Shown here: positions 11,496-12,760 of the stretch, one piece after another | How positions within the stretch are numbered: the stretch's first letter is position 1 | How the letters are laid out: each line of letters begins with the position of its first letter | From: Escherichia coli | GTDB taxonomy: Bacteria; Pseudomonadota; Gammaproteobacteria; Enterobacterales; Enterobacteriaceae | Direction: 5' to 3' (one strand) | Length of the DNA: 38,099 nucleotides | Assembly (NCBI RefSeq): GCF_003334335.1 | Contig: NZ_QOWQ01000042.1 | Notes under the pieces: generated by a model | What the model was told of the DNA's origin: nothing | Seen by the model: the letters and a program-made list of their open reading frames with translations, nothing else | The model's database searches: none | Made by a program: the position numbers and the translations under genes

Positions 11496-12578
11496 TTACC
11501 CCCTGAAACCCGGCGGAATTTCGGTGTCCGGTTCAGAAATGTGATTCACGCAACGCAGGCTGACTGCGCCAGCCTTCGGCAGCGACCACGGATTTTCGAA
11601 ATTCCTGTTCGGGCCAAAAAACGTCGATGCCTGCTGAACAAATTCAGTTCCCGCTTTCCCGGTAGCCTCCAGGTATCTTGCGTAACGCCTCACGCCATCC
11701 AGCACGACATCCGGTGACACCCCTTCGCGTAATCTGGCCCTCCAGGCATTGAACGCGGATTTCTTCGGGTTTGACCCTGCCCGATGCGGATATTCACGCC
11801 AGACCCGTTCGAACACGTCAGGATAATCAACTCGTCCCGCAGACGGTCCCGGCATCGCCCGGGTTAACCCAATCGGCTTCCCGCTCATCGCGGAATCGGC
11901 TTCAGGCTGCTGCGGTTGGCGTTGTTGCTCCGGTTCGACGATCAGCACCTGCTGCACACAACGCCCGGAATCTGCTTCCGGTGTCGTGCCAGCTGGTCCT
12001 GGACGTTCAGTCAGAACAGGACAAAAATCCCCCTGTGGGTCCGTGGCGATTTTTTCGCCATGGACCAGAAGGGTTTTATCCCTTTCCTGTTCTTGTTCCT
12101 GTTCCTGTTCTTGGCTTGAAAGGGGCTCTGAAGGGGCTTCAATTTTCCGACATGATTCACGTCTGACATCCAGGTGGAAATCATCCTTATATCTATCATA
12201 AAAGGATGATAAAAAAGGATTTTCCAGCAACGCGGAATATTCATTTCTTACCCCAGCACAACGGTTATCGCCAGGTTTCAGCGATTCACCAACCTGCCAT
12301 GCTGCCATTTCATGCACCCATACAACCTCAGAATCATGGTCATAGCTGCAAAAACCAGCCTCGCAAGCCATTTGAAGCCCCTTAGAAGCCCCTTCAGGAT
12401 CAAGTCCGGTTTCGTGAGCAATGTACAAAACAGGCAGGTAATAAAGGCCCAGCATATTGGAATGAGGCGAGGTCATCATATACAACGCCACTACCATACA
12501 TTCCGGACCAGACTTCCTGAGTTTTCGCCCTGTATCGCCTAACCAGAACTGAGGTGAAATTGTTGCGTAATTACGCAT
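11496..12578 (-). CDS. replication initiator / replisome organiser (O-like, DUF1376/YdaU-type as recalled)
   Basis: 360 aa; internal EQ repeats; C-terminal DYPDVFERVWREYPHRAGSNPKKSAFNAWRAR. Paired with the DnaC-like gene. Confidence 0.65.
   Translation of the reverse strand: MRNYATISPQFWLGDTGRKLRKSGPECMVVALYMMTSPHSNMLGLYYLPVLYIAHETGLDPEGASKGLQMACEAGFCSYDHDSEVVWVHEMAAWQVGESLKPGDNRCAGVRNEYSALLENPFLSSFYDRYKDDFHLDVRRESCRKIEAPSEPLSSQEQEQEQEQERDKTLLVHGEKIATDPQGDFCPVLTERPGPAGTTPEADSGRCVQQVLIVEPEQQRQPQQPEADSAMSGKPIGLTRAMPGPSAGRVDYPDVFERVWREYPHRAGSNPKKSAFNAWRARLREGVSPDVVLDGVRRYARYLEATGKAGTEFVQQASTFFGPNRNFENPWSLPKAGAVSLRCVNHISEPDTEIPPGFRG
11828..11920. repeat. ~60-bp repeat copy inside the initiator gene (possible iteron/origin element)
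   Basis: ccgcagacggtcccggcatcgcccgggttaacccaatcggcttc...aggctgctgcggttggcgttgttgct, with an internal aatcggcttc duplication. Confidence 0.55.
12086..12109. repeat. hexamer tandem repeat (ctgttc/ttgttc x4) encoding the EQ repeat
   Basis: cctgttcttgttcctgttcctgttc read directly. Confidence 0.6.
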
Positions 12579-12608
12579 AGTCCCCTCGCATACAAGATTT
12601 ACTCCATA

Positions 12609-12760
12609 CCGCAGACGGTCCCGGTATCTCCCGGGTTAACCCAATCGGCTTCAGGCTGCTGCGGTTGGTGTGACTGCACATTGGTGTGACTGCACATCTT
12701 CACAGACGGTCCCGGTATCTCCGGGTTAACCCAATCGGCTTCAGGCTGCTGCGGTTGGTG
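12609..12760. repeat. two tandem copies of the ~60-bp initiator-gene repeat, upstream of the initiator start
   Basis: 12609-12670 and 12703-12760 nearly identical to each other and to 11828-11920. Separated by a spacer carrying the direct repeat gtgtgactgcaca x2. Confidence 0.6.

Follow-up and report, generated by a model that had tools for sequence, protein, structure and literature searches.

Does a repeated element in the replication region of a lambdoid prophage mark its origin of replication? The element lies in a 38,099-nt stretch of Escherichia coli DNA (contig NZ_QOWQ01000042.1), which is lambdoid prophage and is referred to here in its entirety as the window. An earlier note had placed one copy in the linker-coding part of the initiator gene and two tandem copies, separated by a short direct repeat, in the 253-bp spacer between that gene and cII, and had read the three as iteron-type initiator-binding sites or as a duplication scar. 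We confirm the coordinates of all three copies. Comparison with related phages and prophages favors the second reading: the element is rather likely to be a duplication scar of linker DNA at a module junction, and not a set of iterons. The true origin sites are, on the sequence evidence, probably a system of 11-bp GAAGGGGCTTC repeats in the part of the initiator gene that encodes the N-terminal domain.

The three copies differ in form. The in-gene copy, which encodes linker residues ~217–247 (QQRQPQQPEADSAMSGKPIGLTRAMPGPSAG), is a long form of 93 nt, whereas the upstream copies, B and C (Table 1), measure 63–66 nt; the reported size of ~60 bp thus suits the upstream copies but not the one in the gene. 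Inside the long form are two GAAGCCGATT motifs, 23 nt apart. Its extra 23 nt, which duplicate GAAGCCGATT, are missing from both B and C, and these are therefore of a short form. Copies B and C show no mismatch over 59 aligned positions, including an exact run of 41 nt, and their sole difference is a 1-nt indel (CCCGGG versus CCGGG, the deletion being in C). Compared with the in-gene copy, B has 61 matches and 2 mismatches (61/63) and C, whose homology extends through TTGTTGCT, has 63 matches and 3 mismatches (63/66), for an identity of 95–97% over aligned positions. No direct repeat of the window is longer than the 41-nt run that B and C share; 30 first-order Markov simulations gave 13–17 nt. 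The short direct repeat between B and C is likewise present, as two copies of the 16-bp TTGGTGTGACTGCACA at the junction of the tandem units. These units have a period of 90 bp, and the in-gene copy is 772 bp away.

This anatomy is not that of an iteron array. Short phased repeats of ~11–22 bp beside an AT-rich unwinding region would be expected; the element comes in units of 63–93 nt in the window and 113–114 nt in E. coli strain 23CRST049 (locus L003), and GC content is 0.55–0.62 across 12620–12770, where the upstream copies lie. Enrichment of the hexamer GGCTTC was also considered and rejected: 7 of its 22 matches in the window fall within 11875–12742, but over the whole window it is as common as expected, and the duplications largely account for the local clustering. 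When the spacer and the in-gene copy were folded in the orientation of the pR transcript, neither showed special RNA structure (z-scores −0.39 and −0.48). A scan of the spacer for consensus sigma-70 promoters was negative.

A second line of evidence concerns the part of the initiator with which the element travels. The protein consists of an N-terminal domain (residues ~1–155), a Glu-Gln (EQ) repeat, a linker, and a C-terminal domain with a tail. We take the N-terminal domain to be the DNA-binding part, as it is in lambda O. Phage Tritos and locus L061 encode initiators with N-terminal domains unrelated to that of the window, yet from just past the EQ (or DKDT) repeat they have in common with the window its linker, with the PEADS/GAAGCCGAT repeats, and its C-terminal domain. 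This assigns the flagged element to the C-terminal module. In fact, the linker of this module is common to initiators with at least three types of N-terminal domain, and the GAAGCCGAT motif is missing from most relatives of the window's N-terminal domain. If the analogy with lambda O holds, this is the wrong linkage for sites that would be read by the N-terminal domain.

Nor does the element appear to be under extra constraint at the DNA level. Aligned with either L009 or Tritos, the window has 68% identity in the linker, where indels also occur, and 84% in the C-terminal domain. Two 1-nt indels that compensate each other (window 11840–11925 versus L009 3200–3275) place ~15 linker codons in another frame, such that the clade of the window reads GKPIGLTRAMPGPSAGR where L009 and Tritos read READRVVPENTGRPVGR; hence the protein sequence of the linker is itself only loosely constrained. 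Because of the low identity, the indels and the compensated frameshift, the element behaves in these alignments as fast-evolving linker rather than as a conserved DNA site. A comparison of synonymous sites was also made, in which relatives of the C-terminal module, at 65–100% protein identity, proved too close for a strong test; the linker was again less conserved than the C-terminal domain.

The distribution of the upstream copies points in the same direction. Positions 11400–13150 of the window are 100% identical to Escherichia phage PhiR5_2 and 97.5–98% identical to Shigella phages 75/02 Stx and POCJ13 and to phiSTEC1589-Stx1c. Among 5,426 complete E. coli genomes, the spacer occurs in 81 and the allele of the initiator N-terminal domain (counted at ≥95% identity) in 78. 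The upstream element is confined to this one narrow clade of E. coli and Shigella prophages, of the Eru4 type. In IMG/VR, the short form is found only in the context of the cII-initiator spacer, with two copies in 29 contigs and one in 4, and a sample anchored on the N-terminal domain gives the same picture of copy number. Two upstream copies are present in most genomes and in all four deposited phages; one is present in L001 (E. coli G6/7), L093, L102, L109 and L111; and three, all of the long form, are seen at the DNA level in L003. Conservation of the upstream copies in related phages, which the origin reading would lead one to expect, is not borne out. No upstream copy of the corresponding in-gene segment exists in L009–L015, whose initiators are 68–70% identical, or in ~70 further relatives of the N-terminal domain (L009–L084 overall).

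Within the clade, the copies also recombine. CGGCATCAGG is found in the in-gene copy of L003 and in all three of its upstream copies, while every copy in the window has CGGCTTCAGG; this sharing of variants within each locus is the mark of concerted evolution. In E. coli SW071611 (L002), as in SW07163, recombination of the in-gene copy with an upstream one has precisely excised what lay between them, the N-terminal domain included; in L002 the product is out of frame. The deletion, at 1500–1570 of L002, takes the candidate origin with it and leaves a defective prophage in which cII is fused to a remnant of the C-terminal module. Thus the upstream copies derive from a nearby source, occur in a narrow lineage and, among close relatives, vary in number from one to three, undergo gene conversion and give rise to deletion products in two genomes, all of which a duplication scar would lead one to expect.

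Where the probable scar lies is equally telling. Positions 12832–12890 and 12786–12831 align with the 3′ end of cII, the oop terminator and the cII-O junction of lambda and of PhiR57_1, the one annotated close cII relative examined, which encodes lambda-type O and P. The similarity fades just ahead of copy C, which places the copies on the left boundary of a foreign replication module. A distant blastn search with the unique segment 12756–12860 returned only the same four deposited phages. On the lambda side of the boundary, an oop-like antisense RNA unit appears to have been kept from the lambda-type module. Its terminator (12856–12883, followed by a T run) belongs to a 3′ half that aligns with lambda oop. 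The −10 element of lambda pO, CATAAT, is aligned to CAGAAT at 12793–12798, preceded by TG, which suggests an extended −10 element, TGgCAGAAT (12790–12798), and an RNA start near 12806. A search of Rfam gave nothing above threshold; below it were AgvB (E 0.92), which covered the oop-like unit, and a miRNA entry judged spurious.

We propose the following sequence of events. A piece of the linker-coding DNA of the initiator would have been copied into the junction between a lambda-type cII-oop-O module and a foreign replication module, comprising the initiator and a DnaC-like loader. The piece would then have been amplified in tandem by unequal or slipped recombination, yielding the 90-bp unit, and gene conversion with the in-gene copy would keep the copies alike. 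The upstream copies would not be binding sites for the initiator and would probably be dispensable for replication. Their demonstrable effect is recombinational, in the form of copy-number variation and of crossover loss of the N-terminal domain and, with it, the likely origin.

If not in the flagged element, where might the origin be? A scan of the window for repeats yields an inverted pair at 12120–12142 and 12372–12394, and this corresponds to two clusters of the 11-bp unit GAAGGGGCTTC, flanking an AT-rich stretch (Table 1). Matches to the iteron consensus with at most one mismatch occur at these cluster sites and nowhere else in the 38-kb window. Beyond the window, we compared 76 distinct diverged relatives of the N-terminal domain from IMG/VR; phage records for this domain list Escherichia, Shigella, Klebsiella, Acinetobacter and Ralstonia as hosts. 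The motif AAGGGGCTT occurs 224 times in the coding regions of the N-terminal domain (5.1 per kb) versus once in 365 kb of flanking DNA (0.003 per kb), an enrichment of ~1,700-fold. Of the 76 relatives, 71 have cluster 1, at gene positions 187 and 198, and 73 have cluster 2, with two or three units at positions 430–476 (minus orientation in 56, plus in 15, both in 2). Because the orientation of cluster 2 varies, one DNA motif encodes either EAPSKPL or EGASKGL. GGGGCT is absent from Tritos, and a search of the literature for the iteron motif returned the string only in unrelated primer lists.

Several observations indicate that these clusters are conserved as DNA. The codons of cluster 1 are virtually frozen (GGG in 46/47, GCT in 37/48, GGG in 41/47, CTT in 45/48), with an entropy of 0.15–0.93 bits, compared with 1.3–2.5 bits for other conserved residues of the domain with four-fold-degenerate codons. 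An exact match to the 24-mer of cluster 1 is present in 107 stretches of IMG/VR, and 76 of these have only 50–63% identity in the adjoining DNA of the N-terminal domain. Hence it is the GAAGGGGCTTC clusters, and not the flagged element, that have the signature expected of iterons, being short phased repeats whose DNA is conserved and which accompany the putative DNA-binding domain. The AT-rich stretch between the clusters is a possible DNA-unwinding region; across the family the corresponding dip in GC content is modest, with a minimum mean of 0.43 at gene positions 361–400. By analogy with lambda O and its origin, the N-terminal domain would bind the two clusters, and the C-terminal module would recruit the host helicase via the DnaC-like loader.

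This leads to a broader proposal, to which we give an even chance. The uncharacterized phrog_1701 family, to which the initiator belongs, may use an undescribed type of in-gene origin, consisting of two clusters of the nearly palindromic 11-bp GAAGGGGCTTC in the coding sequence of the N-terminal domain, and the linker repeats may be the footprint of recombination that moves a cassette of N-terminal domain plus origin between phages with a common, helicase-recruiting C-terminal module.

An origin repeat inside a coding sequence makes for a fragile gene. In E. coli G6/7 (L001, positions 1040–1075), cluster 2 has three units, and the gain or loss of one 11-bp unit shifts the frame of the initiator gene, which PGAP annotates as frameshifted; other genomes, judging by hit lengths of 612 and 618 nt, may have undergone this event too. 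The CTGTTC hexamers that encode the EQ repeat also differ in copy number between genomes (hit lengths 595, 601 and 607). The EQ repeat marks the module boundary in all relatives, including the AT-rich Acinetobacter phages, and the Ser codon just ahead of it is AGC in 43 of 43 sequences.

Table 1. Position and strand of features in and around the replication region of the window
Feature	Position	Strand	Remarks
DnaC-like helicase loader gene	10749–11489	−	directly downstream of the initiator gene; NF009043, 490 bits
Initiator gene	11496–12578	−	360 amino acids; phrog_1701, E 6.5e-152
In-gene copy of the element	11837–11929	−	long form, 93 nt; linker-coding part of the initiator gene
CTGTTC hexamer repeats	12085–12113	−	encode EQEQEQ; boundary of N- and C-terminal modules
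Candidate iteron cluster 2	12120–12142	+	AAGGGGCTCTG + AAGGGGCTTCA, 11-bp period; end of the N-domain coding region, adjoins the EQ repeat
AT-rich stretch	12143–12260		between the two clusters; GC 0.33–0.38 in 60-nt windows
Candidate iteron cluster 1	12372–12395	−	GAAGGGGCTTC + TAAGGGGCTTC (gene sense); encodes EGASKGL
cII-initiator spacer	12579–12831		253 bp; contains ORF72
ORF72	12599–12817	−	72 amino acids; phrog_2751; repeat-born
Upstream copy B	12609–12671	−	short form; nearest the initiator gene
16-bp direct repeat	12665–12696		TTGGTGTGACTGCACA ×2; junction between tandem units B and C
Upstream copy C	12703–12768	−	short form; nearest cII
Predicted oop-like antisense RNA unit	12786–12888	+	apparently kept from the lambda-type module
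cII	12832–13128	−	phrog_191
cro	13267–13467	−	
cI	13568–14281	+	

Turning to the initiator as a protein, we found no Pfam match, and PHROGs labels phrog_1701 as a DnaD-like helicase loader. The N-terminal domain is modeled by AlphaFold with a pLDDT of 87. Assignment of this domain to a family by fold search was rejected, as the winged-helix-type matches were weak (best E 0.0086). The last ~25 residues (336–360, window 11496–11570; VNHISEPDTEIPPGFRG) weakly resemble the C-terminus of DnaT, with matches in NCBIfam (E 0.009) and to PDB entries 2ru8 and 9zbt (E 0.009–0.03). This similarity probably accounts for annotations of the protein as “primosomal protein I” and hints that the tail may mimic DnaT in recruitment of the helicase complex. 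Downstream of the DnaC-like loader lies a gene for 256 amino acids (9953–10723, minus strand) that matches phrog_630, of unknown function; its product has weak matches to MarR-type and Ren-like families, and its counterpart in L002 is annotated DUF1627.

Several points weigh against a functionless scar, and the alternative they speak for most directly is that the upstream copies are accessory cis sites (bound weakly by the initiator, or else by the linker/C-terminal module or a host factor) that extend the origin or regulate the initiator by autoregulation or titration. No clade member surveyed combines an intact initiator gene with zero upstream copies; at least one copy is always there. Among 21 distinct two-copy loci, only 2 of 253 spacer sites are variable, versus 13 of 412 in the N-terminal domain and 25 of 297 in cII. 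Such low diversity could reflect constraint or a recent shared haplotype; the latter is favored because the spacer of L003 is only 86% identical though its N-terminal domain is 97.7% identical. The element also contains GAATCGGCTTC, a 9/11 match to the iteron consensus, and some relatives, among them L033 and L039 of the Acinetobacter-phage type, have true GAAGGGGCTT sites 25–36 nt before the start codon, so upstream initiator sites do exist in the family. GAATCGGCTTC is oriented like these genuine −25 and −36 sites. Against this, the TC variant is almost unused in the iteron clusters, the AATCGGCTT form occurring once in the N-domain regions versus 224 times for AAGGGGCTT, and the motif is tied to the C-terminal module, being found with unrelated N-terminal domains. 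Units of 63–114 bp spaced 90 bp apart in a GC-rich spacer, tolerance of anywhere from one to three of them, and their absence from all diverged relatives are likewise hard to reconcile with accessory sites. Taken together, we consider this alternative unlikely. As a separate observation, L029, L033, L039 (2455–2485; Acinetobacter phage YMC/09/02/B1251 type) and L083 have one to three extra GAAGGGGCTT-type sites just 5′ of the ribosome-binding site of the initiator gene, which could be autoregulatory operators or part of the origin.

It is also conceivable, though we rate it lower still, that the direct repeats serve as homology arms, making an exchangeable cassette of the ribosome-binding site, N-terminal domain, iterons and EQ repeat, by which phages could swap origin specificity. 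By homologous recombination, a circle with one element could integrate into any phage that shares the C-module linker, and could excise likewise. A 772-bp segment does lie between direct repeats, its excision in L002 is precise, and the linker is shared by initiators with the several types of N-terminal domain noted above. However, we found neither a free circle nor an independent insertion of the cassette in another linker; in IMG/VR the short-form element is limited to one genomic context; and the product of the L002 deletion is out of frame and defective.

The least probable alternative, and a very doubtful one, is that ORF72, the open reading frame in the spacer, is a real small gene or a leader translationally coupled to the initiator, for the sake of which the repeats are kept. 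In its favor, the 90-bp unit keeps variants of 42, 72 and 102 amino acids in frame, ending 20 nt before the initiator ATG; the frameshifted variants share the end SKSCMRGDYA and, as read from the sequence, terminate just past the initiator start codon; and a weak AGG lies 6 nt before the start of the ORF. Yet past residue ~28 the sequence is not conserved, with three different C-terminal frames and endings, and in L003 the ORF stops early, at ~codon 41 by our reading. Variants of 42, 46, 51, 58, 62, 72, 76, 88 and 102 amino acids follow copy number and frameshifts: those of 42, 72 and 102 (the last being P0001) correspond to one, two and three copies, and that of 88 (P0002) suggests a longer spacer with more copies of TTGGTGTGACTGCACA. 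Among 5.8 billion protein clusters, homologues are confined to ten, all from E. coli, with no longer homologue, and the match to phrog_2751 reflects the same few phages.

The start of ORF72 has a different history from the rest. Its first codons overlie the relic of the lambda-type cII-O junction, and the remainder runs through the repeats. Homology between the start codons of ORF72 and lambda O was considered and rejected, since the alignments place that of lambda O opposite a CTG, at codon 9 of ORF72. Also rejected was an ancestral gene starting MEQYTG..., as a protein search with ORF72 and tblastn gave only repeat-born variants and no longer fusion. The earlier note recognized this 72-residue reading frame and doubted it as a gene; variants that track copy number and frameshifts bear out that doubt, and ORF72 is probably not a gene. 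With only 20 nt between its stop codon and the initiator ATG, translation of the two may nonetheless be coupled incidentally.

The duplication scar and the candidate GAAGGGGCTTC origin can be set beside three known systems. In lambda, ori consists of four 18-bp iterons and an AT-rich region in the linker-coding part of O, and is bound by the N-terminal domain of O. As in lambda, the gene order here is cII, initiator, loader, and the initiator gene appears to hold its own origin, with phased short repeats beside an AT-rich stretch at the boundary of the N- and C-terminal modules. What differs from lambda is that the 60-bp element does not make up the iteron set, for which the candidates are 11-bp GAAGGGGCTTC units in two clusters ~230 bp apart in the coding region of the N-terminal domain, the second of variable orientation. 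The initiator is without sequence similarity to O, and its partner, unlike lambda P, is a DnaC-like ATPase. A second parallel is with the mosaic genomes of lambdoid phages, in which modules are exchanged at junctions marked by short sequences shared at the borders of genes or domains. The copies conform to this pattern in that they lie at the end of the cII-oop-O homology, where the foreign replication module begins, and in that the in-gene copy lies in a linker common to initiators with different N-terminal domains. They depart from it in that the boundary sequence is duplicated, amplified in tandem and polymorphic in copy number, rather than a single shared linker. Finally, replisome organizers of Gram-positive phages, such as the product of SPP1 gene 38, have origin repeats (oriL) inside the gene of the protein that binds them, and they consist of an N-terminal DNA-binding part and a C-terminal part that interacts with the helicase loader. 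The likeness to SPP1 would be one of in-gene origin layout; although PHROGs labels the initiator family as DnaD-like, its fold matches are limited to the weak winged-helix hits given above.

The replication module of the window is of the Eru4 type of Stx phages, for which Shigella phage 75/02 Stx is the type phage (PMC8951638), and the Eru4 region of that phage is the same module. That paper classifies the region from its proteins alone. Term searches of it and of another paper on Eru types turned up neither a mention of iterons nor a description of a replication origin. With respect to the flagged element, our analysis serves mainly as a caution against annotating it as an origin and against counting ORF72 (phrog_2751) as a gene. 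The repeats do, however, explain why the initiator gene is often broken or deleted in E. coli prophages. As a by-product, the GAAGGGGCTTC clusters provide a concrete and testable candidate origin for the Eru4-type module of Stx1 phages in Shigella and E. coli, and one for a widespread family of initiators that has been without a described origin.

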